Assembly (NCBI GenBank): GCA_000004985.1
Contig: GG738851.1
Source: Naegleria gruberi
Taxonomy: Eukaryota
Direction: 5' to 3' (one strand)
Length of the DNA stretch: 64,000 nucleotides
Position numbers and translations under genes: made by a program. Under the pieces are notes generated by a model. The model worked only from the letters and a program-made list of their open reading frames with translations, was not told the origin of the DNA and made no database searches. Shown piece by piece: positions 3,978-48,200 of this stretch (the first letter of the stretch is position 1; each line of letters opens with the position of its first letter).

Positions 3978-6900
3978 ATGACGTCCAGAGTGTTTCCTCA
4001 ATCACAAAACACAGCTAGAGTCGCAGGAAGTGTAGTACTAAACGATGCAGAAACTTCCTCTCAATTTGGAGCAGGAACTTCTACCACTTCAAGCTCATTT
4101 GCTTCATCATTGGGTGGGAAAAGTGTTGTAAACAATGCAGGAATAAGTATTTTCTCACTGATAACAACTCTAAGACCTAAAGATACACTAGTTGGTGACG
4201 AGAATACTTACATGTTCCTAGGAATGATATTCTATCATATCTACTTGATATACAACTCTGTAATACTCTCATCACTTTCAACACCAATGATTAGAGATGA
4301 CGATACTAGAACATTGTGGGGAGTTATACCTGGTTGGATATGGAGAGCTTTGTATTTTCCAATCAATTGGGCATCTGAATTCTATCCTTACTTTCTAATT
4401 ATTTCACTATCAATAGCGTTTCTAATTTTACAATTTTCAACTTGTTTTGGAATTTATTATTGTAAATGGGCTTCAAGAAAGGGAGGAAAATTATTTGGAA
4501 GGATCAAGACATTTCTGCTGAATTCATTGTTATTCCAAAGAACTTTTACTTTATTCATCTTGTCTATTCATGCAATTTTGTTATCTCCAAATCTGGATTC
4601 CCAAAATGGAACTTTATATTATTTTCCAAGTCAATCTTTCAGCTCAGTGATACAAATAGTTTGTACCGTAATAGGATGTGTTGGAATATTGTTGAATATT
4701 GGTTTGACGGCTATTGCAACACTTTTAACTGCTGAAACGAGCCCTAAATTGAGCAAAAGAATTTGGTTTTCATTGTATTCAATTTCGCCTTTCATGTTCT
4801 TTAATTTTGTGAATCAAATTAGTTTAGTTTCAACTATTATTTGTACAGGACCTTATACCTATGTTGCTTCTATTGTGAAGATTGTAATGAACGTATTCCT
4901 GCTTATAGTAACGATGAAATCCTTACCATTCTTTAGAAAATGGGAGAATTGCTTTTATTTGGCATTGGTTAGTTTGAAAGTTTTTACTCCAATCCCAACT
5001 TTAATTTTGCAATTTCTTTCCTCGAATCAATTGAATCAACAAGAGATTGGTGGAATAATGACTGGTGTTACTTTTGCAACGGCAGTCATTTCTTTTGGAT
5101 CTGGCTTTATTATTTCTTACGTTTGGTTAGTAATTGAAATGAAATCAGTCAGAAATATGATTTCTAATAAGGAAGACAGTTCCGCAGCATTGCTTCTTCT
5201 TGAGAAATCAAAAAAGAAACAAGATAGTCTTTCACTATTCCTAAGATTTGCAAGCAATAGTGCTCCAGAAATGAAAGTGAGGGAAGGAAGCGATTTTGAC
5301 TTGGCCAAACATGCTGTAAACACACTAGTCAAACCAATTGAAAATGTTGAACTGTTAATTGTCAGTTCCTTATTTGTATCATTTGGTGGTATTCCAGATT
5401 ATGATAGTTCTCAATCATTTAGTATTGGATTGGCTCTATTACAAAAATCTCAACGAATTTCACCATCACTAGCTCAGGTATTCAATATCATGTTAAGAAA
5501 TGAAGAAATAGAATATCATGCCTTTCATGGAAATAATCTTGAAGTTTTAAGAAAACTTGTAATGGTTGAAAAGAAAGTGAAATCATTGTCTAGATGCCAC
5601 AAGTCATTCTTTAAAGAATTATTGAATGATAAACCATCTATTGGTAAATTAGAACAGATTAATAGTGCCAGTTGTTCAATTTATAACGAATGCGACACAA
5701 TTTATGATAATTTACTGGCTTCTAATAGATCCAACAAGACTCTGTTGAGATCGTATGCTTCCTATTTGGAAAAATACAAGTGGGAAATCCAGTTAGCAAA
5801 ACAATTATTTGAGGAAGCTCAAGACAATGATGAAGATAAGAATAAGCAACCGTTTAAGGCATACGAATCCTCATTCCATAAAGGGAACACCTCTAGGTTT
5901 AGTATAGATTCACAAAGAGCTAATATGGATGGTTGGGATTCAGTAAGTGTTGCTGGTGTAGAAGAGAATGACGAAGAAAGAAAAGATCATGTTTTGAGAA
6001 TGGCAATCAACTCTCCTATGTCAACAATTGTATATTCCACATTGTTTTTCCTATTCTGTGCTCTCTCAGTACTAACTATTTGTATCGTTGCTCCCGTTTC
6101 ACTTGTATTTTCTCAGAGTATCAATGAGAGAATGACCATGCAAGAGAAGGTATGCCTAATGACCTCAGTTCCATACAAATTATTAGCTCAGATTCAAGCA
6201 CTTCAAACAGAATATAATTTGAGAGGAAATAATACTGAAAAGCTACTTAATTCTACCATTGATTATACTAATAACTTGTTGGATACTGTTAAAACAGTGG
6301 TATCGGCTGGAGACAATAATATGCTAATGCCAGAAGTTGCCAGAGAATATTTGAAAAATCAATACGAACTTCAACTTCCAATTACAAATGATTCATTAAT
6401 TGGAAAGGAAATTCCTGCATATACAGCCACCAACGCCTCTATTCAATTCTATTTATCTGCTATGTACACTCATGGAAAGACCTTGTTAAATGAATTTAAT
6501 GCTATGGACGGACTGGTTTCGAATACCGATGAGAATTATGCTTTCTTATTTATTTTCTACAATAGAATTCCAATGACTTTAGCTTTCAATAGCTTGTGCT
6601 CTAAATTTGTTGAAGAAAGTGTATCTTCAATTGAAACAAATTTTGAACGCTTGTGGATAATCACAGTTTCCACTCTGGTAACTTATTTGAGTATTTCACT
6701 AATTTTCTTTACAATATTATTCACACACTCGAGAAGACTTGTTGTTGAGCTCAAAGAAATATTTAGAAGAATAACCAAAGATGAAATAGGGAAAGTTTAT
6801 CACAATTTCGAAAAGAAAATAGATGATTCTATTAGCTCTTCAAATAACCTTTTGAAAATGAGCAATATCCTAATGATTGGAAGTTTCCTCTTTGTAATCA

Positions 6901-8804
6901 TCATCTGCCTATGTTCCTTACTAGTCATTGTAGAGCTCAACAGCAACACCAAACAAAGTGCTCAATCCATGAATATTGTCGGTTCAATCAATGCAGTTTC
7001 ATTAAGAACTGCAAGAACCAACTTTAGATTACTCTGGTATATTGATAGGATAAAGTATTTAACCTTGGAACCTTCATTTGTTAACCAAGAAAATAAGCAA
7101 GATTTACTAGATTTGAGAACTTATTGGAATTATGTTGTGGTAGGCGATGAATCAACTTCTTACACATCTGCCATTTATGGAAAATATGATGATGTTGATT
7201 ATATATTATCTGATCTTTGTAATGATACTATTTCAATGGCTGATCCTTGTCACAGTTTAACTGCTGCCTTGACTGATTACATTACAAAAGCTCTTGATTA
7301 CAATGAAGTGTTCTATTACCAAAAAAAGAGTCAGACATTTATGGTAAATGAATATTTTGGGAAGATATTCTATGTTACGCAGACAATTACTTCCAATTTA
7401 CAAACTTTAATCTCTGCTCTTGTCACTCATGAAAAGGTTTCAAGTGTTGGGATAACAGCTTCTATGATTAGCTTATGTTTTATTTCCGCAATTTTATATG
7501 CTGTCATATGTTATTCATCCTTGAATAGGTATTGGAAAGAAAGAGCTTGTTTGAGAATGATGTTGAATTATATCAATTTAGATCTCATTGAAAGCAATTT
7601 GATATTGAGAGAATATGTCATGTCAAATGTTGTTCCTTCCTCAAAGATTTCCTCTAAAATAGTGCCATCTTTTGAAAGTGAGAAAGAAAAGGATGAAAAG
7701 ATTGAAATGGTCAAGACCATATTGAATGGAGGCGTAGATTCTGCAATTATTTGTGATAAGGATGGAAATATTACAATTTTCAATAATTCTGCTGAGGAAA
7801 TGTTTGGCTATTCCAGATCACAAGTTTTAGGTTTACCAATTCAAACTCTATTCACTTCTGAATATTCTGAGAGAATCATGAAATTGGTTTCTACTGGTGA
7901 ATCGCATGATTCATTCGAAGCAATGTCTCAGAGACGAAACAAGACTCATTTCTCTTCAAAGGTTTCAGTTTCCATTTCCATTCATGAAAAGAAACAAATT
8001 TTGATTGTCTTTATTCGTGATATTACTCCAGAAAAGAAACAGAGTTTATTAATTGCTGAGGAAAAGAAGAAGAGTGAAGATTTACTTTTGAATATTTTGC
8101 CAATGTCCATGGCTTCAAAATTGAAGAATGGTGAGGAGCATTTATATGAAAAAGTGAATGATATTACTGTTTTCTTTAGTGATATGGTTGGATTTACTGC
8201 ATGGAGTTCAAAACTGCAACCTAGTGAACTAGTTCATATCCTAAACTCGATTGTTACTGGATTTGATAAGCTGACTGAAATTCACTTGATTGATAAGATT
8301 AAAACTATTGGAGATGCCTATTTTTGTGTAAGTGGATTACACTCATGTAAATCTTCCGATCACCCAGAAAGAATGTTAAAGTTTGCCATTGAAATTATGT
8401 CCTTTTTAAAGAATATCAACACATCAAATCAAACATTAATTAATGTGAGAATTGGCATGCACACAGGCGATGCTGTTGGAGGAGTCATTGGATTTAAAAA
8501 GTTTGCCTACGATCTGTGGGGTGATACCATCAATACTGCCTCTCGTATGGAATCAACATCACTTCCAGGTAGAATTCAAATTTCCAGATCTACCTATGGA
8601 AGAGTTTATGACCTATTCGAATTTGAAGAGAGATTAATTGAAGTGAAAGGAAAAGGAGAATGTCAGACTTATCTACTGAAAGAGAAACATCATGAGAATC
8701 CAATAGCTCTTAATAACATGGCACAAGTGGAAGATAATGATCATTTAGAAGTTTCACAAGGACCATTTTCAAGCCATAAAGAAGATGAGCAACAGCAACA
8801 GTAA
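3978..8804 (+). CDS. Membrane-bound class III nucleotidyl cyclase, predicted adenylyl cyclase, 1608 aa. It has an N-terminal polytopic TM block, a cytoplasmic coiled-coil region, 4 further TM helices bracketing two N-glycosylation-rich extracytoplasmic loops, a PAS domain and a single C-terminal cyclase domain.
   Basis: - The ATG is in A-rich context (aaaaacataATG).
- There are multiple hydrophobic helices at aa ~75–380 and at ~690, ~890, ~960 and ~1155.
- PAS-like segment: VKTILNGGVDSAIICDKDGNITIFNNSAEEMFGYSRSQVLGLPIQTLF.
- Cyclase motifs: FFSDMVGFT…, KIKTIGDAYF (Lys at the substrate-specifying position), FAYDLWGDTINTASRMEST (Asp). The Lys/Asp pair points to ATP rather than GTP. Confidence 0.85.
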   Translation: MTSRVFPQSQNTARVAGSVVLNDAETSSQFGAGTSTTSSSFASSLGGKSVVNNAGISIFSLITTLRPKDTLVGDENTYMFLGMIFYHIYLIYNSVILSSLSTPMIRDDDTRTLWGVIPGWIWRALYFPINWASEFYPYFLIISLSIAFLILQFSTCFGIYYCKWASRKGGKLFGRIKTFLLNSLLFQRTFTLFILSIHAILLSPNLDSQNGTLYYFPSQSFSSVIQIVCTVIGCVGILLNIGLTAIATLLTAETSPKLSKRIWFSLYSISPFMFFNFVNQISLVSTIICTGPYTYVASIVKIVMNVFLLIVTMKSLPFFRKWENCFYLALVSLKVFTPIPTLILQFLSSNQLNQQEIGGIMTGVTFATAVISFGSGFIISYVWLVIEMKSVRNMISNKEDSSAALLLLEKSKKKQDSLSLFLRFASNSAPEMKVREGSDFDLAKHAVNTLVKPIENVELLIVSSLFVSFGGIPDYDSSQSFSIGLALLQKSQRISPSLAQVFNIMLRNEEIEYHAFHGNNLEVLRKLVMVEKKVKSLSRCHKSFFKELLNDKPSIGKLEQINSASCSIYNECDTIYDNLLASNRSNKTLLRSYASYLEKYKWEIQLAKQLFEEAQDNDEDKNKQPFKAYESSFHKGNTSRFSIDSQRANMDGWDSVSVAGVEENDEERKDHVLRMAINSPMSTIVYSTLFFLFCALSVLTICIVAPVSLVFSQSINERMTMQEKVCLMTSVPYKLLAQIQALQTEYNLRGNNTEKLLNSTIDYTNNLLDTVKTVVSAGDNNMLMPEVAREYLKNQYELQLPITNDSLIGKEIPAYTATNASIQFYLSAMYTHGKTLLNEFNAMDGLVSNTDENYAFLFIFYNRIPMTLAFNSLCSKFVEESVSSIETNFERLWIITVSTLVTYLSISLIFFTILFTHSRRLVVELKEIFRRITKDEIGKVYHNFEKKIDDSISSSNNLLKMSNILMIGSFLFVIIICLCSLLVIVELNSNTKQSAQSMNIVGSINAVSLRTARTNFRLLWYIDRIKYLTLEPSFVNQENKQDLLDLRTYWNYVVVGDESTSYTSAIYGKYDDVDYILSDLCNDTISMADPCHSLTAALTDYITKALDYNEVFYYQKKSQTFMVNEYFGKIFYVTQTITSNLQTLISALVTHEKVSSVGITASMISLCFISAILYAVICYSSLNRYWKERACLRMMLNYINLDLIESNLILREYVMSNVVPSSKISSKIVPSFESEKEKDEKIEMVKTILNGGVDSAIICDKDGNITIFNNSAEEMFGYSRSQVLGLPIQTLFTSEYSERIMKLVSTGESHDSFEAMSQRRNKTHFSSKVSVSISIHEKKQILIVFIRDITPEKKQSLLIAEEKKKSEDLLLNILPMSMASKLKNGEEHLYEKVNDITVFFSDMVGFTAWSSKLQPSELVHILNSIVTGFDKLTEIHLIDKIKTIGDAYFCVSGLHSCKSSDHPERMLKFAIEIMSFLKNINTSNQTLINVRIGMHTGDAVGGVIGFKKFAYDLWGDTINTASRMESTSLPGRIQISRSTYGRVYDLFEFEERLIEVKGKGECQTYLLKEKHHENPIALNNMAQVEDNDHLEVSQGPFSSHKEDEQQQQ

Positions 8805-18282: not shown

Positions 18283-19812
18283 ATGTCTCGAAAAGCCGTT
18301 GAGGATGTCATGAGAATTGAGGTAGAGATTATGGACGCCACCAGAGGCGTTTCAAATGCTCGACCTTCATCCTCTCATCACTCTACTAAAAACACCAACA
18401 ACAATACGAACAACAACAATAATCAACCTACAACAACAAGCTCTTCAAATCAACAAGCACAACAACAAACCGTTAATAATATTAATAATAATACTAACAA
18501 ACCTAAGGTTGTTCCTCCAAGGCTTGATCTGCAGCAACCTAGTATTACAAATCATCCGATTAATAGCAAATTTAATCAGAAATCACCTGTTCGTTCCTCA
18601 CGATCCTACACAAACTCTAATGAAATATATCCACCAATTGCTTCTAATGTAGATATTGTAACAAAAAAGTATACATATAATAGAAATACTAGTTCTACAT
18701 CACTTTTTGATAAAACACAAGCTCAATCAGCTCGTTTAAAAACTAAGGACACATTCAAGTCACCAAGATCAACGTATCAACAACAATCATCAAGACAACA
18801 AACAACCCAAAAAACTTCTCCTTTGAAATCTAGGTCCCCTCCAAAGGAAAGAAAACAATCATCTAGTATTGTATACTCACCACCAAAATCCAGAGATTCT
18901 TCAAGATCTCGGCCTCATTCAAGTCCTCCAGGAAGAAGATCAACAACTCCTAAACCAGTTAGAGATCATCCAAGCCATATAATCAATACAAATGTTCCTC
19001 TTTTCACACCTGGACCAGGAGCATATGAGGTTGATAAATCAAGCAAATACCTAAGACCATCCACTGCTATCTCAATGTCCAGAAATTCAAGATTCAAGGA
19101 AACCAAATTTGAAACACCTAGTCCTCATACCTATAATCCAGAAAAACCTTTGAAGAGGATGCCTTCTCCAAGATTTGGGTCGAGTAAGCGACCTGATTCT
19201 GCCAAGTCTGTCTCACCAGGCCCAATTTATGATGTTAATGATAATGCTCTCTCTAAAGTCAAAAACACACCTAGGTTCTCATTCCCATTATCTCCAAGAG
19301 ATTTGGATGTAGAAAATAGAACACCATCTCCAGGGACTTACTCACCGAATTATTCGGCAACAATGAGAAAGTCTGTAACTGTTGTCTTTCCAAAATCTCC
19401 AAAACAAGAAAGGACAAAATCAACAACACCTGGACCTGGAATTTATGATGTGCCAAGTGGGAACAAACAAAAGAAAGAACCAGCTTTTTCATTTGCAAAA
19501 TCTGAAAGACATTCTGACAAAAAGTCGGTGGTTGATAACCAATATGATGTTGCTTGGTCGTCGTTTTCACCCAAAGGCGTTTCAAAGTTTGGATCAACAA
19601 AACGTTTTTCATCACAGAAAAAGAATGATGTTCCTTTCCACCAAAGTCAGACAGAATGGAAAAAGACTCAGGCGGGTAAGTTTGGTAAGGACAGAAGGGC
19701 ATTAAATGATATTAACTCATCAAAATTAACTCCTGGGCCAGGATATTATCAACCTAATTATACAGTAACTCTTCCTTCATCCTCTAAACCAGTGCTGTAT
19801 CTGACAGGATAA
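18283..19812 (+). CDS. STPGR (sperm-tail PG-rich repeat) / ODF3-SHIPPO-like protein, 509 aa, with an N/Q-rich N-terminus.
   Basis: [ST]PGPGxY-type motifs recur: TPGPGAYEV, SPGPIYDV, SPGTYSP, TPGPGIYDV, TPGPGYYQP. SPRF/SPKG-type segments lie between them. The N-terminal tract is homopolymer-rich (NTNNNTNNNNNQPTTTSSSNQQAQQQ). Confidence 0.7.
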   Translation: MSRKAVEDVMRIEVEIMDATRGVSNARPSSSHHSTKNTNNNTNNNNNQPTTTSSSNQQAQQQTVNNINNNTNKPKVVPPRLDLQQPSITNHPINSKFNQKSPVRSSRSYTNSNEIYPPIASNVDIVTKKYTYNRNTSSTSLFDKTQAQSARLKTKDTFKSPRSTYQQQSSRQQTTQKTSPLKSRSPPKERKQSSSIVYSPPKSRDSSRSRPHSSPPGRRSTTPKPVRDHPSHIINTNVPLFTPGPGAYEVDKSSKYLRPSTAISMSRNSRFKETKFETPSPHTYNPEKPLKRMPSPRFGSSKRPDSAKSVSPGPIYDVNDNALSKVKNTPRFSFPLSPRDLDVENRTPSPGTYSPNYSATMRKSVTVVFPKSPKQERTKSTTPGPGIYDVPSGNKQKKEPAFSFAKSERHSDKKSVVDNQYDVAWSSFSPKGVSKFGSTKRFSSQKKNDVPFHQSQTEWKKTQAGKFGKDRRALNDINSSKLTPGPGYYQPNYTVTLPSSSKPVLYLTG

Positions 19813-19895: not shown

Positions 19896-21458
19896 TTAGT
19901 TTTGTTGCTTATAGATATCAGATGTGTCTCTCAACCAAAAAACATCATGAGTATCTACAGAGGTTTTGTAGAGTATTGCGTCTTGTCCTTGTGTAAGATT
20001 TGGTTTATAAACTCCTCTAAAGGCAACTGACATGTTATCACAAATTATGATATCTCCTTGCCTCCATTTATGTCTGAAAATTGGACCATTATCTAAATGA
20101 TTAATAAGACATTGATTGAATTGTTTACAACATGAACAACCCATTGTCTTAATCTTTGTTTCAGGCAAATTAATAGTATTGTTAATATCTGAAGGTGGTA
20201 ATTCACAAGTTTGACCAGAATTACACTCATCTGAGGATACCAAAAACCCTGAAAGAAGGCCAGTGTGCAAATACAAACTTTTCTTGGTTGTTACAGGGTG
20301 TTTTCTAACCAAAGGTTGAATAGCCGTACTTGTTGGTCCTTTGACAATACTGAAAACTTTGCCAGTCTTTTCCTTGACCTTGTCTTCCATTCTTTCATAT
20401 GCCAGTTGTAGGTCAGTAAACAAAATTTCCTCTTCCTTATTACAGAAAGCTGCATTCCAAACTGTAATAGGAGTAGGATGAACCTCATGACGATATGACC
20501 CATCACAATTCCAATAAAAGAAATTGCCTGCAGCAAATGTTGGTTTGTCAATGTTATAAGTTGTCACATTTGGTGGGTTATTAACAAAGGAAGAAGGAGA
20601 CATTGGCATTGGAGAAAAGGCAGAATCTGATTTCATTGGAGAGTATGGTGTTTGATATTGCATTTGATTTTGATTTGGCATTTGATTTTGGTAAGGTTGA
20701 ACGCTTTGGGAAGATGGTGAGTAACTTTGATAATTAGAAGTGAATGAGGATTGGAATGAAGAACCATAGTTTTGATTTTGGTAAGAAGGAGGCGAGTTAA
20801 ACTTTTGAGGAGAATTGTACATATTTTGTTGTGGAAGTTGTTGTGGGAGTTGTTGTGGTATTTGATATGGTGAATATTGTTGCATTTGAGTGTTACTATT
20901 TGGAGGTTGAGGAGAAATATTAGAAGGTTGAGGAGAAACAGGGCAAGCTGACATTAATGCACATTTCGATAACACTCTTTGATTTGCAAGAGAATATGAT
21001 GATGAAACTACTTTCCAAATATCAGGATGTCCAGGAATAATAGTGTCCAGCTCATCATTCCAAATTTTCTCATACTGATTCACAGGATATGGATATCTAC
21101 AAGTTTCTCCAAAAAGTTTTTCACAAAATTGTGTCTGTTCTTTTGGTGAAAGTGGTTTCTGACATCTGAAAAGCAGTAAATGGTGTTCAACCAAAGCTCT
21201 TCTAATTTCAATTATTTCATTATCATTCAAATTAGCACCGCCACAAGTAATATCAACATTCAAAATCTCTCTTCCGAATGGTAATGCTTGTGGATAATTT
21301 GAAGATATTATACTACTAGGATTTGAATTACAGCAACCAGAACCACTAGGAGTAGTACCAGGTGAGCCGTATAATTTTCTATATTGAATTCTACTCTTAC
21401 CATCTTGTTTGTTAAAGATGGATGAAAGTGAACAAAAGCACTGTCCAAGGCAAGGCAT
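19896..21458 (-). CDS. TauD/TfdA-family Fe(II)/2-oxoglutarate dioxygenase homologue, 520 aa, with both metal-ligand histidines replaced. It is a likely pseudo-enzyme and carries an internal Q/N/Y/S/P-rich low-complexity (prion-like) insert.
   Basis: - ATG at 21458.
- N-terminal TauD-like block: REILNVDITCGG…EIRRALVEHHLLLFRCQKPLSPKEQTQFCEKLFGE.
- C-terminal block: FYWNCDGSY where the family has WHxD.
- PLVRKHPVTTKKSLYLHTG matches TauD PVVRxHPETGRKSLF.
- WRQGDIIICDNMSVAFRG, where the family has …WDNRxxxHRA (His→Phe).
- Between them is a ~110-aa tract, QQLPQQLPQQNMYNSPQKFNSPPSYQNQNYGSSFQSS…. Confidence 0.7.
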   Translation of the reverse strand: MPCLGQCFCSLSSIFNKQDGKSRIQYRKLYGSPGTTPSGSGCCNSNPSSIISSNYPQALPFGREILNVDITCGGANLNDNEIIEIRRALVEHHLLLFRCQKPLSPKEQTQFCEKLFGETCRYPYPVNQYEKIWNDELDTIIPGHPDIWKVVSSSYSLANQRVLSKCALMSACPVSPQPSNISPQPPNSNTQMQQYSPYQIPQQLPQQLPQQNMYNSPQKFNSPPSYQNQNYGSSFQSSFTSNYQSYSPSSQSVQPYQNQMPNQNQMQYQTPYSPMKSDSAFSPMPMSPSSFVNNPPNVTTYNIDKPTFAAGNFFYWNCDGSYRHEVHPTPITVWNAAFCNKEEEILFTDLQLAYERMEDKVKEKTGKVFSIVKGPTSTAIQPLVRKHPVTTKKSLYLHTGLLSGFLVSSDECNSGQTCELPPSDINNTINLPETKIKTMGCSCCKQFNQCLINHLDNGPIFRHKWRQGDIIICDNMSVAFRGVYKPNLTQGQDAILYKTSVDTHDVFWLRDTSDIYKQQN

Positions 21459-22219: not shown

Positions 22220-23809
22220 TTATTCTTCTCTAATAATTAAATCTTCTCCATCATCATCTTCATCATCACCCAAGTCAATAACAATTCCAGAATTTTCAGA
22301 ATTTGAGGCAGTTTCATTAACGGCAGGAGCCTTTGTGGTATTGGTGGAAAACATTTGATTGGTAATGTAGGATTGAGAGGTATCCTTCATATCAACTTTA
22401 AGTGATGGTAAGAAGTAAATAGCCAACATTATACAGTAAAAATTCAATAATGGGAAAACACCTAAATATTGAACTGCATTATCACTAGTGTTCAAAATTA
22501 AGAATGAGAACATGTTAGCACCCAAAACAACTAAAACTAAGAATGTTAAAATAAAGAAATATTTGAATCTAACGGAGGATTGGTTAGTGTTAGAATAAGA
22601 GATAATATTCATAGCCAATTTGTCCTTCAATTCTTGATTCAATGGTTGAGTATTGTTCAAATTCTCAGCTAATTGAATAAAATCATTACCACCCAAAGTC
22701 TTGAAAATTTGATAAAAGATGTAAAGCAACATTAATCCACCCAAACCAATTACACCAATTCTAATAATACCAAATAATGGGGCATCAATCAAGTAACTAT
22801 ACATTAATCTATCACTAAATGTTTCATATCTTTCAAATAATAAACTAACAGTCAAACAACACCAGAATAATAATGTAAAGATTGACTTCCAAATATAAAA
22901 GTTTACAGTACGAAGCTTTGGATGGGTGTTTGCTGATGCTGTAATTACCATCAAAAATAATAAAAAGAAACTAATAAATGTAGATTGGAAGATAATATTT
23001 AAAAATGGTAAAATCCAATCATTTGCTAACCATTCACCAATAAATAAAGGATTATTGAATAAAATTAATGAAATTAATAAAAATAAAATCCATTTTTGTT
23101 CAGTCTTGGCATATCTGAATGTTTGATATTTAAGAAGAATGAAAGAATAGAAAATGAAAATGATAATACTAATAGCTGCATATAAATATCTCATAACAGA
23201 TTCAAATGTAGTAAAATCAGACCTTATAGTTTCCAATCTATAGAATAATGTATCACTTCTTAATAATGAAGAAACATCCAAATTTTCAATTTGAACTTTG
23301 ATTCTATATGTTGGATATGAAATATATCTTTCACGATAGACAATCACTGGAGCACAGAAATAACTTTTTCCATTATAATCAGCACTTGTACCACATTGTA
23401 ATGCTCTTTGAATTGTAAATTTTTCAGAAACAATAGGATGGAAAGTAGTATCATCATTACTACCTTCAATAGATAAAATATTTAACTTGAGATCCTTCTT
23501 GTTCAATCCACTCACAAAATTTTCGTTTTCTCTAAAAAGTAATGAAATTGTCACTTCTTGATTTGATTTAACTAATCTTGATGTTTGAATAGTAAATTGA
23601 TCTTGGCCTTTTAAAATTTTAGAATAATCATCGGCAGTTGTTATTACTTTGTGTTCAATATGTTGTTTAACTGTTGGAGCAAAGAATAAAATACCAACAC
23701 TTCCGAACACTGACAAGAAGAAGAAGATGAATGTTAAAACGATAGACCAACTAGGTAATGTATCAATCAGTACACTATAATTTGGAGGTGGTGCTTTTTC
23801 GTTTGCCAT
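22220..23809 (-). CDS. Polytopic membrane protein, 529 aa. It has an N-terminal signal-anchor TM, a ~195-aa lumenal/extracellular domain, 7 further TM helices and an acidic C-tail. The topology is Wntless/TMEM181-like (or LUSTR/GPR107-like).
   Basis: - ATG in aaaaaaaATGG context.
- Helices include WSIVLTFIFFFLSVFGSVGILFFA, AAISIIIFIFYSFILL, WILFLLISLILF and LPFLNIIFQSTFISFFLLFLMVI.
- Further helices: IWKSIFTLLFWCCLTVSLLF, LFGIIRIGVIGLGGLMLLYIFYQIF, FFILTFLVLVVLGANMFSFLIL and LGVFPLLNFYCIMLAIYFL.
- The C-terminus is …DLGDDEDDDGEDLIIREE. Confidence 0.65.
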   Translation of the reverse strand: MANEKAPPPNYSVLIDTLPSWSIVLTFIFFFLSVFGSVGILFFAPTVKQHIEHKVITTADDYSKILKGQDQFTIQTSRLVKSNQEVTISLLFRENENFVSGLNKKDLKLNILSIEGSNDDTTFHPIVSEKFTIQRALQCGTSADYNGKSYFCAPVIVYRERYISYPTYRIKVQIENLDVSSLLRSDTLFYRLETIRSDFTTFESVMRYLYAAISIIIFIFYSFILLKYQTFRYAKTEQKWILFLLISLILFNNPLFIGEWLANDWILPFLNIIFQSTFISFFLLFLMVITASANTHPKLRTVNFYIWKSIFTLLFWCCLTVSLLFERYETFSDRLMYSYLIDAPLFGIIRIGVIGLGGLMLLYIFYQIFKTLGGNDFIQLAENLNNTQPLNQELKDKLAMNIISYSNTNQSSVRFKYFFILTFLVLVVLGANMFSFLILNTSDNAVQYLGVFPLLNFYCIMLAIYFLPSLKVDMKDTSQSYITNQMFSTNTTKAPAVNETASNSENSGIVIDLGDDEDDDGEDLIIREE

Positions 23810-23963: not shown

Positions 23964-25913
23964 TTACTTTTCCTTGAATTCAGCATCGTTTGGTGATTGA
24001 GTGTTTGGTTGTTGTTGAGTTTGTCTAGAATTGGCTTGTTCCTTGTAGTGTTGTTCAGCCAACTTAGCTTGAGTTTGCTTCAAAGCATCCAAAGAAGTCT
24101 TGAGTTGATCCAAGTTATCAGCTTGCATAGCTTCACGAACAGCTCTAACTTCATTTTCAGCCTTAGTCTTCAAATCAGCAGCGAGCTTTGAACCCAAATC
24201 CTTGATGTGTTGTTCAGCCAAGTGAACAGTAGTATCAGCTTCATTCTTAGCATCAATCAAACTCTTTCTCTTAGCATCTTCTTCAGCGAACTTTTCAGCT
24301 TCATCTTGCATTCTCTTGATGTCAGCATCAGTCAAACCACCAGATGATTGAATAGTAATTTGTTGTTCCTTTCCTGAAGCCTTATCAACAGCACTGACGT
24401 TCAAAATACCGTTAGCATCAATATCGAAAGTAACTTCAATTTGTGGAACACCTCTTGGAGCTGGTGGAACACCAACCAAATCGAATTGACCTAACAATTT
24501 GTTATAAGCAGCAATTTCTCTTTCACCTTGGAAGATCTTAATACCAACTTGAGTTTGGTTATCAGCAGCAGTGGAGAAGATTTGAGACTTCTTGGTTGGA
24601 ATAGTAGTATTACGATTAATCATTCTACTGAAAACACCACCCAAAGTTTCAATACCCAAAGACAATGGAGTAACATCGAGCAAGACAATACCATCAACAT
24701 CACCTCTCAAAACACCACCTTGAATAGCAGCACCAAGAGCAACAACTTCATCAGGGTTAACATTCTTTGATGGCTTTCTTCCGAAGAATTCAGAAACCAA
24801 AGTTTGAACACGAGGCATACGAGTCATACCACCGACAAGAACGACTTCATTGATATCCTTCAAAGTAATACCAGCATCCTTCAAACACTTCTTACATGGT
24901 TCAATAGTACGATTAATCAAATCAGCACACATTTGTTCGAATTTAGATCTAGTCAAATCCATGAGCAAGTTCTTTGGTCCGGAAGCATCAGCACAGATGA
25001 AAGGCAAGTTAATTTCAGATGATTGAGCAGATGACAATTCAATCTTAGCCTTTTCAGCAGCTTCTCTGACACGTTGGAGAGACATTGGATCCTTTGACAA
25101 ATCAACACCTTCCTTTGCCTTGAAATCAGCAATAATCCATTCAACAATCTTGTGATCGAAATCTTCACCACCCAAGAAAGTATCACCATTGGTAGCCTTA
25201 ACTTCAAAGACACCATCTTGAATTTCAAGAATAGAAACGTCGAAAGTACCACCACCCAAATCGTAGACAGCAATGATACCGTGCTTTGATGAATCCAAAC
25301 CATAAGCAAGAGCAGCAGCAGTTGGTTCGTTGATAATTCTTTCAACAGTAAGTCCGGAAATTTGACCAGCATCCTTGGTAGCTTGTCTTTGAGAATCGTT
25401 AAAGTAAGCTGGAACAGTAATGATGGCTTGAGTAATCTTTTCACCTAAATATTGTTCAGCAGTTTCCTTCATCTTTTGCAAAATAAAAGCACCAACTTGG
25501 GATGGTGACAAATCCTTTCCACCAGCTCTAACCCAAGCATCTCCATTTGGTCCACGAATAATATCGTATGGGACAATTTCCATATCACGTTTAGTCATTG
25601 GATCATCGAAACGACGACCAATCAATCTCTTAATAGCAGTGAGTGTATTCTTTGGGTTTGTAACAGCTTGTCTCTTAGCCAAAGCACCTACAAGCAAGTT
25701 ACCATCTTTATCGAAAGCAACAACTGATGGAGTGGTTCTAGCACCAATATCGTTTTCAATAACACGAGCAGACTTGTTAGATTCCATAACAGCAACACAA
25801 CTGTTAGTAGTACCCAAGTCAATACCAATGATCTTGTTTCTTTGTTGTTGTTGAGTAAGACCCATCATTTGGGATTTCTTGATGTTTCGCAGTAATTTGT
25901 TTCCTCTGAACAT
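23964..25913 (-). CDS. Mitochondrial-type Hsp70 (DnaK/mortalin family), 649 aa, with an N-terminal presequence.
   Basis: - [27 protein letters not shown] precedes [14 protein letters not shown].
- DnaK-type signatures: [25 protein letters not shown].
- The C-terminus lacks cytosolic EEVD.
- The ATG at 25913–25911 was verified. Confidence 0.9.
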
Positions 25914-26633: not shown

Positions 26634-29495
26634 ATGTTAGGACAAACAATAACGTTGGATGAAATCGAAAGAGTAGATCGTGAATCGATAGGATTTACTA
26701 ATTTAATTGAAGATAGATATATTTCCTACTCTGATTGTAATAATGAATACTTAAATAGTGACCATATTATGAATCACCAACTTTATACAATTTCAAATAC
26801 TCTTGGTCTTATTGCTTTTATTAATAGTGAAGATTGCATTAAAATATCATCAACTTTTGATATTCACGAATACATACAAAAGAGACTTGAGAGTTTACCA
26901 AAAACTATTTATGAATACAAATTAGACTCTACACCTAATTTTATAAAATTTTCAGAGAATGGAATGAACTTAGTATTTTCCGTAAAAGATGAAATTATTA
27001 TCTTTAATTTTACAAAGGATTTAAAATTTAAACAATTGAGACATAAATTCGATTCGGAAATTGTGGAATTTGATTGCAAGCTTGACAATAAGATATTTGT
27101 TTTATTAAGTACAAATAATATCCATTACTTAAACTATGAACAGGATATAGTAGTTAAAAAGTTAGAATGTGTAACTGATTGTTCAACAATTTGTTCAAAC
27201 AACAAAATATTGAACAGCTATTTACTTGTTGGTACAAACACAAGTGATCTAATTCTTGTGAACTTTGATAAGGATTTAGTTTTATTTAAGTGTAAAATTG
27301 ACGATATTCAGAGAGTTCATTGTTTAAATTGGTTTGACAACTTTTATTGTACATTTTCTACTTTTGTACCTTATAATGATGCAGTGGATTTTAAAATTGT
27401 AATTTTACAATTGAATCATGAATGCTTTAAAGGTCAACCATCTAGTGATGTGGAATTAGTAGTAAACGGCGGATCTTGCATGGAATTTTTCCCAGATTAT
27501 CAAAAACCAGTAACAATTGATAATACATGCAGATATCATACAGTTTATTTGGATCATTGGAAGATGCTGTTGTGCTCCACCAGTACTGATAGTAGACTTG
27601 TTGTCTTCCAACAAATCGATGACAAGTTTAACTTATTAGCACTTAATAACAAGTGGTCTATTGATACTTTCCCACTTTATGAGGATAATCCAACTTTCTC
27701 TTTGGGACTAGTTGCCGATTTTGGTTATGACTACCAAATAGACAATATCAAAAGTAAGACTGATGCAGCAAAGCATGAAGCCTCACCTCTCATTCATATA
27801 TATCTGTCCAGTGGGTTTATTGTTACTTATGCATTAACTAATTGTGATGAATTGAAGAAATATCCAGTAGTACACGCATCACAAAGCTTAACTAATTTAA
27901 AGATTGAGGAACTAGCCGAAGAGAAAAAAGAACCAATTGTAGAAAAAGTGGAAATAACTCCAACTATTGAAGAAAAGCCAAAAGATTCACCTGTTCCTGA
28001 ACAAAAAAATATTACAGAGGTTATATCTCCTGTAAAGGAGGAAAAACCTGTAGAAACAATCATTCCAGAGGTGAAGAAGTCTCCAGAAGTTACAAAGCAA
28101 CCATCATTCGAACAACCAAAGATACAATTTAATCCAGTTACCAATAATACTAGTAATTTAGGAGGATTTAGTTTTGGAAATACCAATACATCCAATACTT
28201 TCAATTTTAATGCTGTAACCAAACCAACTCAACCAAACATTACATTTCCAACAGTTGCAGCTCAACCAAAGCCAATTATTCCTCCAACCACACAACCAAC
28301 ATTACCTGAACCTAATATCCAAAAACAACCTTTGGCTCAACCTAGGAGTAATGTTATGGAAAAGATAACACCGAATGTTACAACAGGAATTGTTGACAAG
28401 AATATGATCCAATCACTTAATAATTTTTCTTCCAATTTAACATCAGTTAATGCTGAAAGTGGTGTTTTCAAAAATGATATCAAGCCAATCATTGGTAAAC
28501 CACTAAAACATGAGCCAATTAACCAAATACCACTCATTCCTAAAACCAAACCTTCCCAGAATCCTTCAAAGCCATCATCTTCCATTTCGAGTTTTAAAAA
28601 TGATTTAGCTGTTATTCAGTCAAAGTCTTCAAAGTCTAAGTCCGACGAAAAAATTCAACAATTATCCAAGGATACAGCCAAGAAAGTTCAAGATGCCAGA
28701 GTTAAATTTAGCTTGTTGAAGAATGTTATAGAGAACATCAATAATAACCAGGAAAATGATTTGAAATTTATCAAACAAGATATTTCAACAATTAGATCAA
28801 ATATTGATAAATTGAATGATGAATTAATTAAGAGTGACGAGTCATTAAAACAAAGAGTAGAGAGACTGAACGAATACCTAAATAGAGAATGCTCAATTGT
28901 AGAGTTATTAGGTATGAAAATCCAACAAAATAGAAAAGAGTCAGTGAAAGAAACAGGATTGGATGAGACTGCTCAATATTTCAAAGATATTATTTCTCAC
29001 AAGTTTAATAACATAATAACTAATATTGAAGGGTTGGAAAATCAAGTTAAGCGTAAATTAAACTTGATTCCACAGAAAACTCCAACATTGATTTGCTTAC
29101 AAAATACTTTAAGTTTGCAAAGAAACAGAGCTGTTGAATACAGAAAGTATGTCTTGAGTATTTCTCAAGCATTGCACTCTAAGGAACATACCTCAGCTAC
29201 AGATTTATTTATTCAAAATTTAGCAATGAAAAAGGCTAACCATGAATCAAACCAAAATGGTAGTGCATTGAAAAATATTGAAATGACCAGGATCAAACCA
29301 ATAGTTAATAATTCTTCAATTTTGAAGAAGAAAATAAGTCTTATTCATGAAGATGATACAACTATTTTCCAAGATTATGAAAATATTGATGAAATTTCGG
29401 ATATTTCTTATGAGGATGATGAATCCAAGAACCCACTCAATCAATCTTTTATTCAATCTGAAAATTCATCACTTGATCTCTTAGATGAAGAAGAT

Positions 29496-29530
<35 letters not shown>

Positions 29531-32144
29531 AACAGTGACAAATTCTCCAATCAATTTCAATTCAAACAAACAACAAAATTTTGCAGCAGCCACTACATCG
29601 TTCCCAAATACATTTGTTCCACCAAAACAAACAAATGGAGGCTTCAACTTTGGAGAAACAAAGACAGTACCAGCTACTACAAATACTCCTTTCAATGCAT
29701 CACTTTCTAGTAAGACAACTGCTCCAAACACTCAATTTAATTTAGCCTCTGTCATGGAGCCAAAGAAAGAAGCCACTTCTTCATTGCCAAATTCAGTATC
29801 GACTCCAACTTTAAATTCTGGTTTCAATTTTGGACCTAAAGTCGATGCAACCACTAAGCCTTCTACTGTAAACATACCACCAATTGCTTTTGGGACCACT
29901 CCTGGATTCGATTTTGGAAAGAAGGAGGAATCCACAACAGCTCTTCCTAAACCAGCTACAACTACTGGATTTACATTTACTTCAAAGGAAGAACCAAAAC
30001 ATGCTATCACAACTCCAACAGTAATGCCAATTGCAACTAAAACAGAAACGACACCATTAGTGAGTGTTAATCCATCTGCTGGATTTAGTTTTGGAGCAGA
30101 TACCAAAAAGGAAGTAAATCCAATACCAATGGCTGGTGGATCTTCTGGTTTTAATTTTGGATCAACTAAAATTGATTCACAGAAAGAAGAACCAAAGTCT
30201 GAAACAGCTAAAACAGAGCCAAAATTGGATACAAAGAAAGAAAATTCCTTAGACAGTGAGTCCACAAGTTCTAAGGTTGAAACAAAACCTTTGTCTAATT
30301 CATTTAACACCGCACCTTTCCCGTTAGGAATTAAGAAAGAGGAACCTAAAGTTGAAAATAAGACAGAAGAGCCAAAGAAGGAAACTCCAACCTTAATAGA
30401 AAAGAAAGAAACCAAAGAAGAAACCAAGACAGCAACTACAACAGGATTTAATTTTGGAACAGATACCAAAAAGGAATCAATCCCAACAACTGGCTTCTCT
30501 TTTGGAAAAACAGAATCAACACTAGGTAAAACTGAACAAAAGGAAGAATCCAAGAAATCTGAAGTATCAGAAAAACCAAAAGAAGAACCTAAACCTGTAG
30601 CTTTCGACTTTGGTAAGAAGGAAGAATCAAATATTTCTGATATTTTCCCATCCAAAAAGATTGCAACTTCACCAGTAAGCTCAGAAAGGAGCAGTTTCTT
30701 TGAGTCACCACCACCTGTTACTGATTCAAAAGTTTTACTCACAGGTTTTGCTAATACTATTCCATCAAATGACAAACTTTCATTTAATTTCCCTTCAACC
30801 TCATCTACCTCTTCCACTGAAGCTAAGAATATTCAAGTAGAAGCAAACAAAGAAGAAACAAATAAGGAAGAACCAAAACAAGAAACCAAGAAAGAAGAGC
30901 CAAAGAAGGAAACACCAGTCTTGGTAGAAAAGAAAGAAGAAACAAAGCCTGCAACCACAACTCCAACCACAAGTGGTTTTTCTTTTGCCACTACTTCAGG
31001 TAACAGTGGATTCAGTTTTGCTAACACAAAACTTCCAGAATCCAAACCTGCAGAAGTGACAACACCAAAGGCCGAAGAAACAAAACCTATTGAAACAAAA
31101 TCTAATGCTTTTGGAACTAACCCATTCAACACATTACCAGCTGTCACAAAACCTGCCGAGACCACATCCTTCACCTCATCAAATACTGTATCAAACACTC
31201 CAACCACTACCCCTACTACTAACACTATGGGATTTAACTCTATTCCAACCTCACAACCAATCTCAACACCAAAGGATGAAAATGGTATGGAGGATAATGA
31301 TGATGTTATTATTGGAGCTAGTGGAATGGGATCTCTTTCTTTGGGAGCACCAAATAATAATAATGCAACTCCATCTGGATTCACTTCATTCTTGAATAAT
31401 AATACTGGGTCATCATCAAATATTTCATCTGCTTTCCCATCAAGTAATACTATTACTACTTTTGGTACAGGCAATAATAGTGGAGGCTCTTTCTTTGAGC
31501 CTGTGAATAGCTCTGTAGGAGATTCTCCATTCTCGAATCCATCCTCTAATTCCTCATTACCATTCTCATTCCAAGGTAATTCTTCATTTGGAGCTCAGGG
31601 ATCATTTAGCTTTGATTCTGGTAGAAATTCTGGTATTGGAACATCAACAACTCAACCAAATGGTGGCTTTGGTACTAGTAGTTTTGGAAATACTAATAAT
31701 AATCAAAATTCTGTATTGACAAGTGGTTTTGGTTCAAACACACTCAATACTGATACAACAAAAACATTTGGAACATCATTTGGATCATCTGGATTTGCAA
31801 CTAAATCAAATACTCAACCAGCAACAAGTGGTGGCTTTGGTAGTGGTGGATTTGGCAGTGGAGGCTTTGGATCAGGAGGTTTTGCAAGTAATTCAACCAA
31901 TAATGCACAACCAGTTTCAACCAGTGGTGGATTTGGATCAAGTGGATTTGCAGCTACATCAAACTCTTCTGGATTTGGATCACTTGCAAGTGGTTCTAGC
32001 CCATTCAGTACTTTGGGTAGTCAAGGAACACCTTCATTCTTACAAGGAAATACTCAACCATCCTTTGGATCAAATAATAATAATAATAATGGTAATTCGT
32101 TTGGTTCATTTGGCTCATTTGGGGCTTTTGGAAGAACTAATTAA
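26634..32144 (+). CDS. FG-repeat nucleoporin with Nup214/Nup159-like architecture, 1836 aa. It has an N-terminal β-propeller-like region, a central coiled coil, a poly-Glu acidic tract and extensive GFNFG/GFSFG/GFDFG and GGFGS repeats.
   Basis: - The N-terminal ~400 aa is non-repetitive and β-rich.
- There are dozens of FG motifs, for example GFSFGNTNTS, GFNFGETK, GFDFGKKEE, GFSFGADTKKE and SGGFGSGGFGSGGFGSGGFASN.
- A coiled-coil segment spans aa ~690–780.
- An acidic tract DEEDEEEEEEEEEEEEE is encoded by a GAA/GAG microsatellite at ~29485–29532. Confidence 0.8.
29485..29532. repeat. (GAA/GAG)n trinucleotide microsatellite encoding the poly-Glu tract of the nucleoporin.
   Basis: Read directly in the sequence: gaagaagatgaagaagaagaagaagaggaagaagaggaagaagaa. 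Confidence 0.7.
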
Positions 32145-45237: not shown

Positions 45238-48200
45238 ATGAGTGTCCCTAACAACCCTGTTGGAGAAATCAACAATAAGGACTCTCTAATAAGTCAGTGT
45301 ATAGAATACATAACCAATGTTGGTGTGCTACTCATCGATTGTGATAGGAATGACTTGAAAATACAATTTAGAAGTTTGGAGAAGAGAGAAATAATTTCTA
45401 CATTCTTGTTTGAACCTTCTCAGTCTGCCTTATTTCTTCAAAAGGCTCCGAAGAGTGAATCAACACCAACTGACTTGGAAATCAAGTCCAATAGTAATGG
45501 TTAGTATTTAGATCAATGTAAATATCTAAATCAAATAATAGAAGTAAAATATGATTATTATTGTATGCTGGAGATGAATTACAGGGATAAATCGGATGGA
45601 ATTTGCTTCATCAAAGGAGATAAGAAGGTTTTTACGGAACAATTATTGGAAGGAAAGAAATTGTCATCATTATTACAAGTGGTGGAAATCAAAAACGATC
45701 TAAATCCTTTTGAATTATTGAACACTTATATTTGTAGTGGATTTGAACCTTATTTTTCATCTTTCGAAAAAACTAAAAGAAATCAAAGAGACTTCAAGAC
45801 ATCAGTAATTTCCGATATTACGGAAAGTTTAAAATCTTTAAAACTTGCATTAAATCAAGTACAACAAGCCTATCAAATTCCCGAGGTGGACGTATTAAGT
45901 TTTGTTCATCAAGATGTAAAGGATATGGTTAAACAAGGAGCAACTTTGGATTCATTGAGTGACAAAATTACCAAGTTGAAGAATGAAACCAAATTAATTG
46001 AAGAAATTAGCAAAATGTCATTGAATTGTGCACACGAAATTAGAGGATTGACACAAAAAGCAGAGTAAGTTGAATATTAGAATTTAATTGTTTAATTTAT
46101 AATATTTAAAAAGAGAAATGAACATTCAGAGTGTTGCCCAAGAAATTAATTATTGGCACTCTTTGGAAAGAACTTTGTCAAATGTTGATCAACAATTGAA
46201 GAGCCAGGAAATAGTATTTACCTTGAATATTTTGAAAAATACAAGAAGAATGCAAGCTTTTACAGCTTTAAACACAACAGGAATAGAAGATGTACTGCAA
46301 AGAGCTAAAGAGTGTAACTCTCTTTTAGCAGATCTACCAATCAATGAATTACTCTCTGCTAAGGATATTGAGAAAATGACAGCAACAATTGCCCAAATGT
46401 TCACTCAGCTCAACAAATCAAAAATATATCACAATAAGGATTCATACCCTATGGAGCGTGCTGTTAAATTAGTAGAGGCTCTGTCAAGGGACGTGTCAGA
46501 AAAATTATTGGAAATTCTAAAATCATCACAAATAATGTTTCTCAATTTTGAAGATTTTGATAGAATAACGAAAAACTGTATTGATTTGTTTGCTACACTG
46601 GATTCGGATATTAAAACATTTACCAAGATTGCAAGTGATGTTGCTAGAAAGAAGCAAAAGACTGCTGTGGAAATGAGTAAATTAGAACATCTTCATTTAC
46701 AAAAAAGAATCGAGGAAATTAGAAATTTCAGAGTGCAACATGAGGAACTTAGAGTAGTTATTGAAAAAGTACTACCAACATCAAATTTCGATGTTAGAGA
46801 AACAAGTGCTTTGGATCAAGTTAATAAGGCTTTTGAAGAATTTAGAACTCTGGAAAATAAGGTATTTGACACTTCATTTGAAGGCCAACAAACTTGGAAG
46901 AGTGCAATTAAATCTTACAATGAAAAAATAGACAAAGCAGAGACTCAAATTACAAGAAAACTCACAGATCAATTAGGTATTGCAAAGAGTGCCAGTGAAA
47001 TGTTTAGAATTTTCTCCAAATTCAATCCTCTTTTCTACAAGCCAAGGATTAGAAGTGCAATTCAACAATATCAAGAGCAATTAGTAGAAAGAGTAAAGGT
47101 CGATATAACCAAACTAGAAGAAAAGTTCAAACAACACTACCCATACTCTGAAACCGAAAAGATGAGTAAGCTTAGAGATTTACCATCTGTATCAGGTTTC
47201 ATTATTTGGGCAAGGCAGATTGAAAAGCAATTAATTGCATACATGAAAAGAGTAGATGACGTTTTTGGAAATGGCTGGGATAGAATGAAAATTTTAAGAA
47301 AAAAGGATTGTCTTTGGACATTGAATGAATCTCTAGCAGAATTTATGGGAGTTCCTTTCTCTAAAATACAATCTAAAATAAGCAGCCATCCAGTTCTCTC
47401 GTTACTAACCAAACCAGAAACTACTGGTACCGCATTAGCTTTAGCTTTCCTTGAACTTGTATATACAGACTCAGAAACCCAATGGAAAGTTATGGCATCA
47501 GAAAGCAGAGAAATACTAAAGAGAGAAGTCGAAAAAACAAGACTTTCTGGTGATATTATTCAACATTGCAGTGAAATTTTGAAAGAAGAAAAGATTGGTG
47601 GTAGACATATCGAAGAAAACAATTTAAGGAAGGAAGGAGAGAAATTTAAGAACAAACTTCAAGGAAATATTTTCACTGTTCTAGAAAGATGGAATAATGA
47701 AGTCTTTGAGAAAATGTTTAAATGGAAAATATTCCACCTCTCAAATGATAGTCAGGTGTCTGTAAAGGGATTTATATTCGAAATTGTAAAAAATAAGGAA
47801 GAAAAATCCGATCTAAGAGTTAATTTTGATAAGGAAATAAGTACTTTAATCAAGGAAGTAAGAAATCTGTCTTCCCTTGATATGATTTCTAGAGTCAAAT
47901 CAGAAATTAAGATTGTAGCTATGGAGGCTTCTCACATACATCCTATAGCTGTATCTCTGTCAGAAAGTATTAAGATATTCAAGAAAGTCATGAAGGAAGT
48001 TGAGGATAGACCTTACGTTAAACCTTTAGCCTCAAAGTATTTGAACAGTATTTATGAAAAGCTTTCAGAAGGATTCAAACTATCTTGGAAGAGCACAAAA
48101 CTTGACAAATACGCCAAAGAACTGTACGAGGACGTCACAAAGTTTTCAAATCATATTCATGATTTACTTTTGGATGTGGATAAAATCTTCAAATTCTTGG

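Follow-up and report, generated by a model that had tools for sequence, protein, structure and literature searches.

The window analysed here, a stretch of 64,000 nucleotides of nuclear DNA from the amoeboflagellate Naegleria gruberi (contig GG738851.1 of assembly GCA_000004985.1), encodes on its minus strand a 520-residue protein that belongs to the TauD/TfdA family of Fe(II)/2-oxoglutarate dioxygenases but carries neither the iron-ligand histidines nor the 2-oxoglutarate-binding Thr and Arg of its intact relatives. The initial annotation of this DNA had called the protein a probable pseudo-enzyme or a repurposed fold, and this proved to be the right reading, because the triad and the 2-oxoglutarate residues have been lost, the loss is fixed across the Naegleria clade, and the gene is under purifying selection. 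Judged from its sequence, the protein is very probably not an Fe(II)/2-oxoglutarate oxygenase. With less assurance, although still as the reading that we favour, it is taken to be a catalytically dead descendant of a bacterial-type TauD/TfdA dioxygenase that serves a non-catalytic purpose.

19896-21458, minus strand: complete coding sequence of the TauD/TfdA-like pseudo-oxygenase of N. gruberi, 520 codons plus stop, intronless

Since this open reading frame (ORF) matches XP_002681194 / EFC48450 (UniProt D2V430) from end to end with 100% identity, it was accepted as the gene model. The protein begins with MPCLGQCFCSL, and its orthologues share the same start residues. The blocks WNCDGSY, PLVRKHPVTTKKSLYLHTG, GDIIICDN, and NMSVAFRG, quoted in the initial annotation, were all located in the ORF where it had placed them.

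Homology to the TauD/TfdA family

The protein is, beyond doubt, homologous to the TauD/TfdA family. A comparison with the Pfam model of TauD (PF02668), which had been proposed as a check, returned a match with an E-value of 1.2e-10 and 42.2 bits, above the gathering score of 27 bits, and the similarity is thus not due to chance. A profile of five Naegleria-clade sequences, aligned by hhalign with a profile of E. coli TauD and 30 homologues, gave a probability of 100% and an E-value of 5.3e-41 over 251 columns. In a phmmer comparison with PDB sequences, TauD and AtsK chains were matched in three colinear pieces, and both the TauD N-terminal block and the HPVVRTHPVSGK block were aligned. An AlphaFold2 model, built on a 33-sequence alignment, reached values of the predicted local distance difference test (pLDDT) above 90 in its core. 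When this model was compared with the PDB using Foldseek, all 50 listed matches were TauD/TfdA-type dioxygenases (TauD, AtsK, PlaO1, RdpA, and AAD), with template modelling scores (TMt) of 0.71-0.81 to TauD, AtsK, PlaO1, and RdpA, E-values down to 4e-14, and TMt values of 0.64-0.81 across the listed matches, bar one partial alignment. The fold shared with E. coli TauD itself (PDB 1GQW and 1OS7) was recognized at a TMt of 0.71-0.72. The model and the Foldseek search therefore assign the protein to the TauD-type double-stranded beta-helix fold, the first half of which lies upstream of a long insertion.

21000-21290, minus strand: N-terminal half of the TauD fold, residues 57-153, aligning with E. 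coli TauD 9-88; pLDDT 93-97 for residues 61-120

Loss of the iron- and 2-oxoglutarate-binding residues

The alignment register at the former active site was tested using MAFFT (59 homologues plus E. coli TauD), hhalign, and phmmer against PDB chains. Fragments of the E. coli TauD reference sequence were confirmed by the PDB alignments, and its numbering was checked in the MAFFT alignment. A single register emerged from the three methods, in which N317, D319, and F480 occupy the positions of TauD H99, D101, and H255. The altered triad had been read as N-C-D…F in the initial annotation, and the agreement of the three alignments shows this to be correct, with the Asp kept and both His replaced. 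The positions concerned are as follows.

20502-20510, minus strand: N317-C318-D319 at the HxD iron-binding motif (TauD H99-T100-D101), invariant in five Naegleria-clade sequences; the iron ligand H99 is replaced by N317, and the iron ligand D101 is kept as D319
20424-20426, minus strand: I345 at TauD T126, a 2-oxoglutarate contact that is Thr in 93% of other homologues
20019-20021, minus strand: F480 at TauD H255, the distal iron-ligand His; Phe in all four sequences reaching the position
19965-19979, minus strand: AILYK (A494 to K498) at TauD R266-IMH-R270, as aligned by MAFFT and hhalign; A494 stands at R266, the residue for the 2-oxoglutarate C5-carboxylate (Thr in the other three sequences reaching the position, Arg in 82% of other homologues), and K498 replaces the substrate-binding Arg R270 with Lys

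The loss is therefore wider than had been described earlier, as the 2-oxoglutarate residues T126 and R266 are also gone (I345; A494 or Thr). Relative to E. coli TauD, the substitutions are H99N, T126I, H255F, R266A, and R270K, and the Asp (D101 -> D319) is the only surviving residue that binds iron or 2-oxoglutarate in the family. At TauD positions 99/101/126/255/266/270, the Naegleria pattern reads N/D/I/F/A(T)/K, whereas in the MAFFT alignment H-x-D/E…H is kept in 49 of the 59 best non-Naegleria homologues, most of which display the full H, D, T, H, R, R pattern. The selectivity of this loss is apparent from the 31 columns with a conservation of 75% or more in other homologues: the structural ones, including W98, G65, P108, H192-P193, W240, G243, D244, and D249-N250, are kept in Naegleria, and precisely the iron and 2-oxoglutarate ones are lost. 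Both hallmarks of the Fe(II)/2-oxoglutarate dioxygenase class, namely the facial triad H-x-D/E…H and the contacts to the 2-oxoglutarate C5-carboxylate, are absent, and 2-oxoglutarate-dependent oxygenation would be beyond the capacity of such a protein. Of the four replacements, three (Ile, Phe, and Ala/Thr) introduce a hydrophobic or small residue, a pattern that is expected for a filled-in, unused cofactor pocket.

Among the metagenomic members of the same TauD/TfdA subgroup, five (P0039, P0040, P0048, P0058, and P0063) also lack one iron-ligand His in the alignment, with R, R, Q, or G at H255 or Q at H99, and the Naegleria N…F pair occurs in none of them. Loss of the triad may be recurrent in the TauD/TfdA family, or these five cases may reflect alignment errors.

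Conservation and purifying selection

Wherever the respective position is reached, the same substitutions are present in N. gruberi, N. lovaniensis (P0002), N. fowleri (P0003), a soil-metagenome fragment (P0004), and an environmental contig (L008). The orthologues comprise 521 residues in N. lovaniensis, 522 in N. fowleri (FDP41_009646), and 483 in the environmental contig (1164-2615), on which a prokaryotic gene caller had fragmented the genes and called only 191 residues of this one. The N. fowleri and N. lovaniensis proteins carry the more guarded database name 'TauD/TfdA-like domain-containing protein'. The ratio of nonsynonymous to synonymous substitution rates (dN/dS) was calculated between these two species using the Nei-Gojobori method.

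Whole protein: dN/dS 0.085
Residues 299-407, including the dead HxD strand: dN/dS 0.024
Residues 408-440, the conserved second insertion (20139-20237, minus strand; ...DECN...INNTINLPETKIKTMG), a Naegleria-specific segment that is highly conserved and poorly modelled: dN/dS 0.013
Low-complexity insert: dN/dS 0.17

Purifying selection is strong in all folded parts and strongest around the former active site. The protein is maintained by selection and is therefore a functional pseudo-oxygenase rather than a decaying gene. Homology to an enzyme family, loss of catalytic residues, and purifying selection, which together serve as the operational definition of a pseudoenzyme, were all observed.

Relatives and origin

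Relatives were sought by a word-indexed search of 5.8 billion proteins and by an exhaustive search of 1.84 billion representatives. The former returned, above noise, sequences from the Naegleria clade only; in the latter, scores dropped from at least 648 bits within the clade to at most 84 bits for the next homologues. Outside the Naegleria clade, identity over the matched stretches reached at most about 38% in the libraries searched. Orthologues that retain the histidines, for which a check had been recommended, were not found in these protein-library searches.

The nearest intact relatives are uncharacterised bacterial and metagenomic proteins of about 250-280 residues. Named relatives of the best hit (P0005) in the protein search came from Duganella, Pseudoduganella, Rugamonas, Bacteroidota, and Sphingomonadaceae, and a scan of genome contigs with P0005 returned alphaproteobacterial genes only, at 30-35% identity. 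Because the relatives of P0005 are bacterial, a bacterial-type ancestor is suggested for the Naegleria protein. The intact bacterial and metagenomic TauD/TfdA relatives have the same block order, with LRxALxEHxLLxFR, W-x-x-D-G, HPLVRxHPVTGxxxLY, and GDxxxxDN. In comparison with them, the Naegleria protein is without both iron-ligand His, the 2-oxoglutarate-binding Thr, and the 2-oxoglutarate-binding Arg; it has gained an insertion of about 158 residues before the HxD strand and another of about 26 residues before the C-terminal helix; its N-terminus is extended by a Cys-rich stretch; and its Cys content is three times theirs. It is also eukaryotic and, in our searches, confined to the Naegleria clade.

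The database name of XP_002681194 / D2V430 is "taurine dioxygenase". This name is an over-annotation and is wrong, because the score against the NCBIfam taurine dioxygenase equivalog (NF007104) is far below its cut-off (34.3 versus 313 bits, the match being limited to the N-terminal 60 residues) and the catalytic residues are absent.

A disordered loop in front of the former HxD strand

The two halves of the fold are separated by a segment that had been described as an insert of about 110 residues with a prion-like, Q/N/Y-rich composition. The insert itself is real, but its size was underestimated. Its low-complexity core comprises about 120 residues, and, because conserved Naegleria-specific flanks surround this core, the segment without a TauD counterpart extends to about 158 residues.

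20526-20999, minus strand: Naegleria-specific insertion, residues 154-311, a gap in the hhalign alignment that replaces TauD loop 89-96 directly before the HxD strand
20565-20924, minus strand: low-complexity, S/Q/P/N/Y-rich disordered core, residues 179-298, with 78% S+Q+N+P+Y, 3 charged residues, and 8 SP dipeptides

In TauD, loop 89-96 sits at the mouth of the substrate pocket. The AlphaFold model, which had been suggested as a means of locating the insert, shows it as a disordered segment in the loop directly ahead of the former HxD strand, and pLDDT is below 50 across residues 161-311 apart from three isolated residues. Within the core, the DNA contains tandem repeats of 12, 18, and 21 bp. 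Across four lineages, core length ranges from 92 to 130 residues, and identity within the core is 31-42% compared with 71-81% in the folded parts. Composition is nevertheless held, with an S+Q+N+P+Y fraction of 0.74-0.80, 8-9 SP dipeptides, and 1-4 charged residues. Measured over 80-residue windows, the S/Q/N/P/Y content of the insert (0.82) is the highest among the ORFs of at least 200 residues in the 64,000-nucleotide window, three others of which reach 0.56-0.69.

The prion-like label was not established by these data. Across the four lineages, the core contains 20-28% Q, 11-18% Pro, and only 1-12% Asn, and is S/Q/P/Y-rich; on prion-propensity scales, high proline counts against amyloid or prion propensity. 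Rather than a classical Q/N prion domain, the insert appears to be an intrinsically disordered, S/Q/P/Y-rich loop that evolves fast in sequence and is conserved in composition, and it could act as a flexible and possibly phospho-regulated interaction region.

Conserved cysteines and the N-terminus

The Cys-rich N-terminus pointed out in the initial annotation is real and is conserved in the four full-length sequences. It is followed by a basic segment that is also conserved.

21426-21458, minus strand: N-terminal Cys cluster MPCLGQCFCSL, with three Cys kept in all four full-length sequences
21369-21425, minus strand: conserved basic segment SSIFNKQDGKSRIQYRKLY, with no difference between N. 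fowleri and N. lovaniensis (100% identity)

The N-termini read MPCLGQCFCS in N. gruberi, MPSCLGSCLCS in N. fowleri and N. lovaniensis, and MAPCYGQQCFCS in the environmental ORF, so that the spacing of the three residues is C-x3-C-x-C in the named species and C-x4-C-x-C in the environmental sequence. The pLDDT is below 50 for residues 1-18. The conserved DGKSRIQYRKLY comes after the Cys cluster, residues 25-28 are modelled as a short β-strand, and the mean pLDDT of residues 21-30 is 82. The conserved Cys cluster lies within the first 12 or so residues and outside the folded domain, as would be expected for S-acylation, and it is probably an S-acylation (palmitoylation) membrane anchor, through which the protein would be tethered to a membrane. 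Protist Cys-rich N-terminal extensions predicted to be palmitoylated without myristoylation have been documented (PMC5869587).

Fourteen Cys are invariant, and Cys content is 3.8% compared with 1.1% in other homologues. One of the invariant residues (C473) aligns with TauD W248, and the conserved MGCSCCKQFNQC, the Cys-rich helix start into which segment 408-440 runs, contains four. This region includes M-G-C-S-C-C-K (residues 439-445; window positions 20124-20144, minus strand), which is invariant in all sequences reaching it and resembles an SH4-type N-myristoylation and palmitoylation motif, yet is preceded by 438 residues of the protein and begins a helix of the fold. The resemblance may be fortuitous, or the motif may mark an internal start or become exposed through cleavage.

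Gene neighbourhood

The gene faces a convergent downstream neighbour with a sperm-tail-type repeat.

18283-19812, plus strand: SHIPPO (sperm-tail PG-rich) repeat protein, Pfam PF07004, E-value 8e-12

This neighbour is present in the same orientation in N. fowleri (L001), N. lovaniensis (L003), and the environmental contig, and it is the sole conserved syntenic partner, whereas the other neighbours (a Wntless-like transmembrane protein, Hsp70, a kinase, and an ABC transporter) vary between species. In N. gruberi, the SHIPPO-repeat protein has an N/Q/T-rich N-terminus, and the upstream neighbours of the pseudo-oxygenase gene are the Wntless-like transmembrane protein (22220-23809) and Hsp70 (23964-25913). 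The wider neighbourhood in N. fowleri and N. lovaniensis includes cilium/flagellum-type genes with TSNAXIP1_N and FSIP1 domains (L001 1584-4957 and L003 12008-12733), and the environmental Naegleria-like contig encodes a Fic-domain protein (6041-7096, minus strand).

Elsewhere in the window, several further genes were noted.

3978-8804, plus strand: 1608-residue protein combining a PAS domain with a downstream adenylate/guanylate cyclase catalytic domain
26634-32144, plus strand: uninterrupted ORF of 1836 residues with no Pfam match at E <= 0.001 and a low-complexity stretch (S/Q/N/P/Y 0.56) near residue 1571
46118-59281, plus strand: intronless dynein heavy chain of 4387 residues with a complete complement of DHC_N1/N2, AAA1-6, stalk, and C-terminal domains
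60298-62136, plus strand: radical-SAM methylthiotransferase-like protein (UPF0004, Radical_SAM, and TRAM)

Discussion

We propose a non-catalytic role for the protein, as a binding or scaffold module whose remodelled pocket and conserved Naegleria-specific segments would engage a partner or ligand. Several observations weigh against this proposal. D319, N317, H324, and C473 lie near the pocket and may be candidates for a different metal or catalytic site. The 14 invariant Cys may be a sign of a metal, redox, or disulfide function instead of a passive scaffold. S-acylation is read from the N-terminal sequence, and this N-terminus, being moderately hydrophobic, could instead be a weak signal peptide. 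Moreover, searches of the literature and of supplements returned nothing on a binding partner, expression pattern, or localisation of the protein.

The first of these points leads to the possibility of a repurposed enzyme, in which the fold would catalyse a reaction other than Fe(II)/2-oxoglutarate oxygenation at a new site formed from the retained Asp, Asn317, the conserved His324, and/or a Cys such as C473, and might use another metal or none, like the metal-independent cupin enzymes. In its favour, the former active-site strand is among the most constrained parts of the protein (with WNCDG.YRHE unchanged across five sequences and a dN/dS of 0.024), D319 is retained, and one of the 14 invariant Cys is placed at the pocket residue corresponding to TauD W248. 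The replacements, three of four being hydrophobic or small, nonetheless resemble pocket filling more than the construction of a polar site; searches of Pfam, NCBIfam, and the PDB brought up no known family whose site reads N-x-D…F; and C318, the x residue of HxD, faces away from the metal in the TauD fold. We therefore regard a repurposed enzyme as unlikely. A chance about as low is given to a further formulation, in which a lipid-anchored, Cys-rich non-oxygenase module, derived in the Naegleria lineage from a bacterial-type TauD/TfdA oxygenase, has a new job for its former pocket (Asn/Asp with hydrophobic filling, bordered by the new conserved segments and the disordered S/Q/P/Y loop), be it ligand, peptide, or metal sensing or binding via Cys, or metal-independent catalysis. 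A link of this module to the flagellate programme is possible because of its conserved pairing with the SHIPPO-repeat (flagellar-type) gene.

Different localisation would distinguish a secreted or lumenal Cys-rich glycoprotein with a signal peptide, disulfides, a glycosylated loop, and an NNT sequon; with regard to catalysis, it would remain a dead oxygenase. Several features would suit a glycoprotein of this kind: the moderate hydrophobicity of the N-terminus CLGQCFCSLSSIF, a high Cys content that is conserved, the conserved sequon within INNTINLPETK, and a Ser/Pro-rich loop. However, the hydrophobic stretch lacks a basic n-region and is short, with Q, S, and G interrupting it, while three Cys at near-fixed spacing suit acylation better than the core of a signal peptide, which makes this option decidedly unlikely. 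It is highly improbable that the altered triad reflects an alignment artefact hiding the true His ligands or that the gene is a decaying pseudogene, although identity to active homologues is low (20-37%) and two histidines, H324 and H327, are located 5-8 residues past the NCD motif. Misalignment was rejected, as MAFFT, hhalign, and phmmer concur, the flanking W98 and D249-N250 match exactly, and H327 is not conserved, being Cys in N. fowleri and N. lovaniensis. A pseudogene or assembly artefact was rejected on the basis of an ORF that is intact in four lineages and a dN/dS of 0.085.

The preferred reading, a catalytically dead and non-catalytic member of the family, has a conceptual counterpart in another oxygenase branch. 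Within the JmjC branch, oxygenase-fold proteins without catalytic activity are known, JARID2 being an example: the fold is retained under selection, other residues have taken the place of the metal or co-substrate ligands, and the protein acts in binding or as a scaffold. This analogy is one of concept only, since the JmjC proteins belong to a different superfamily branch from TauD/TfdA and have no detectable sequence relationship to the Naegleria protein. The SyrB2-type non-haem iron halogenases, which belong to the same superfamily, are also a natural variant of the 2-His-1-carboxylate triad, in which HxA/G…H has lost the carboxylate and kept both His as well as 2-oxoglutarate binding. The Naegleria pattern is the opposite, with the carboxylate kept and both His and the 2-oxoglutarate contacts lost.

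Our literature searches found no paper describing a pseudoenzyme of the TauD family, no paper mentioning the accession numbers of this gene, and nothing relevant on Naegleria in combination with TauD or taurine dioxygenase; the gene is not listed in the 19 supplements of an N. fowleri genomics paper. The protein represents a clean, genus-wide pseudo-enzyme in the TauD/TfdA branch, for which no described non-catalytic member was found. The selective nature of the loss, with iron and co-substrate residues gone and structural residues constrained, makes it a good case for studies on the re-use of the oxygenase fold. For Naegleria biology, reconstructions of sulfur and taurine metabolism would be led astray by the label 'taurine dioxygenase'. 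The protein is conserved in the brain-eating pathogen N. fowleri and, as a lineage-specific protein, may be of diagnostic or biological interest.

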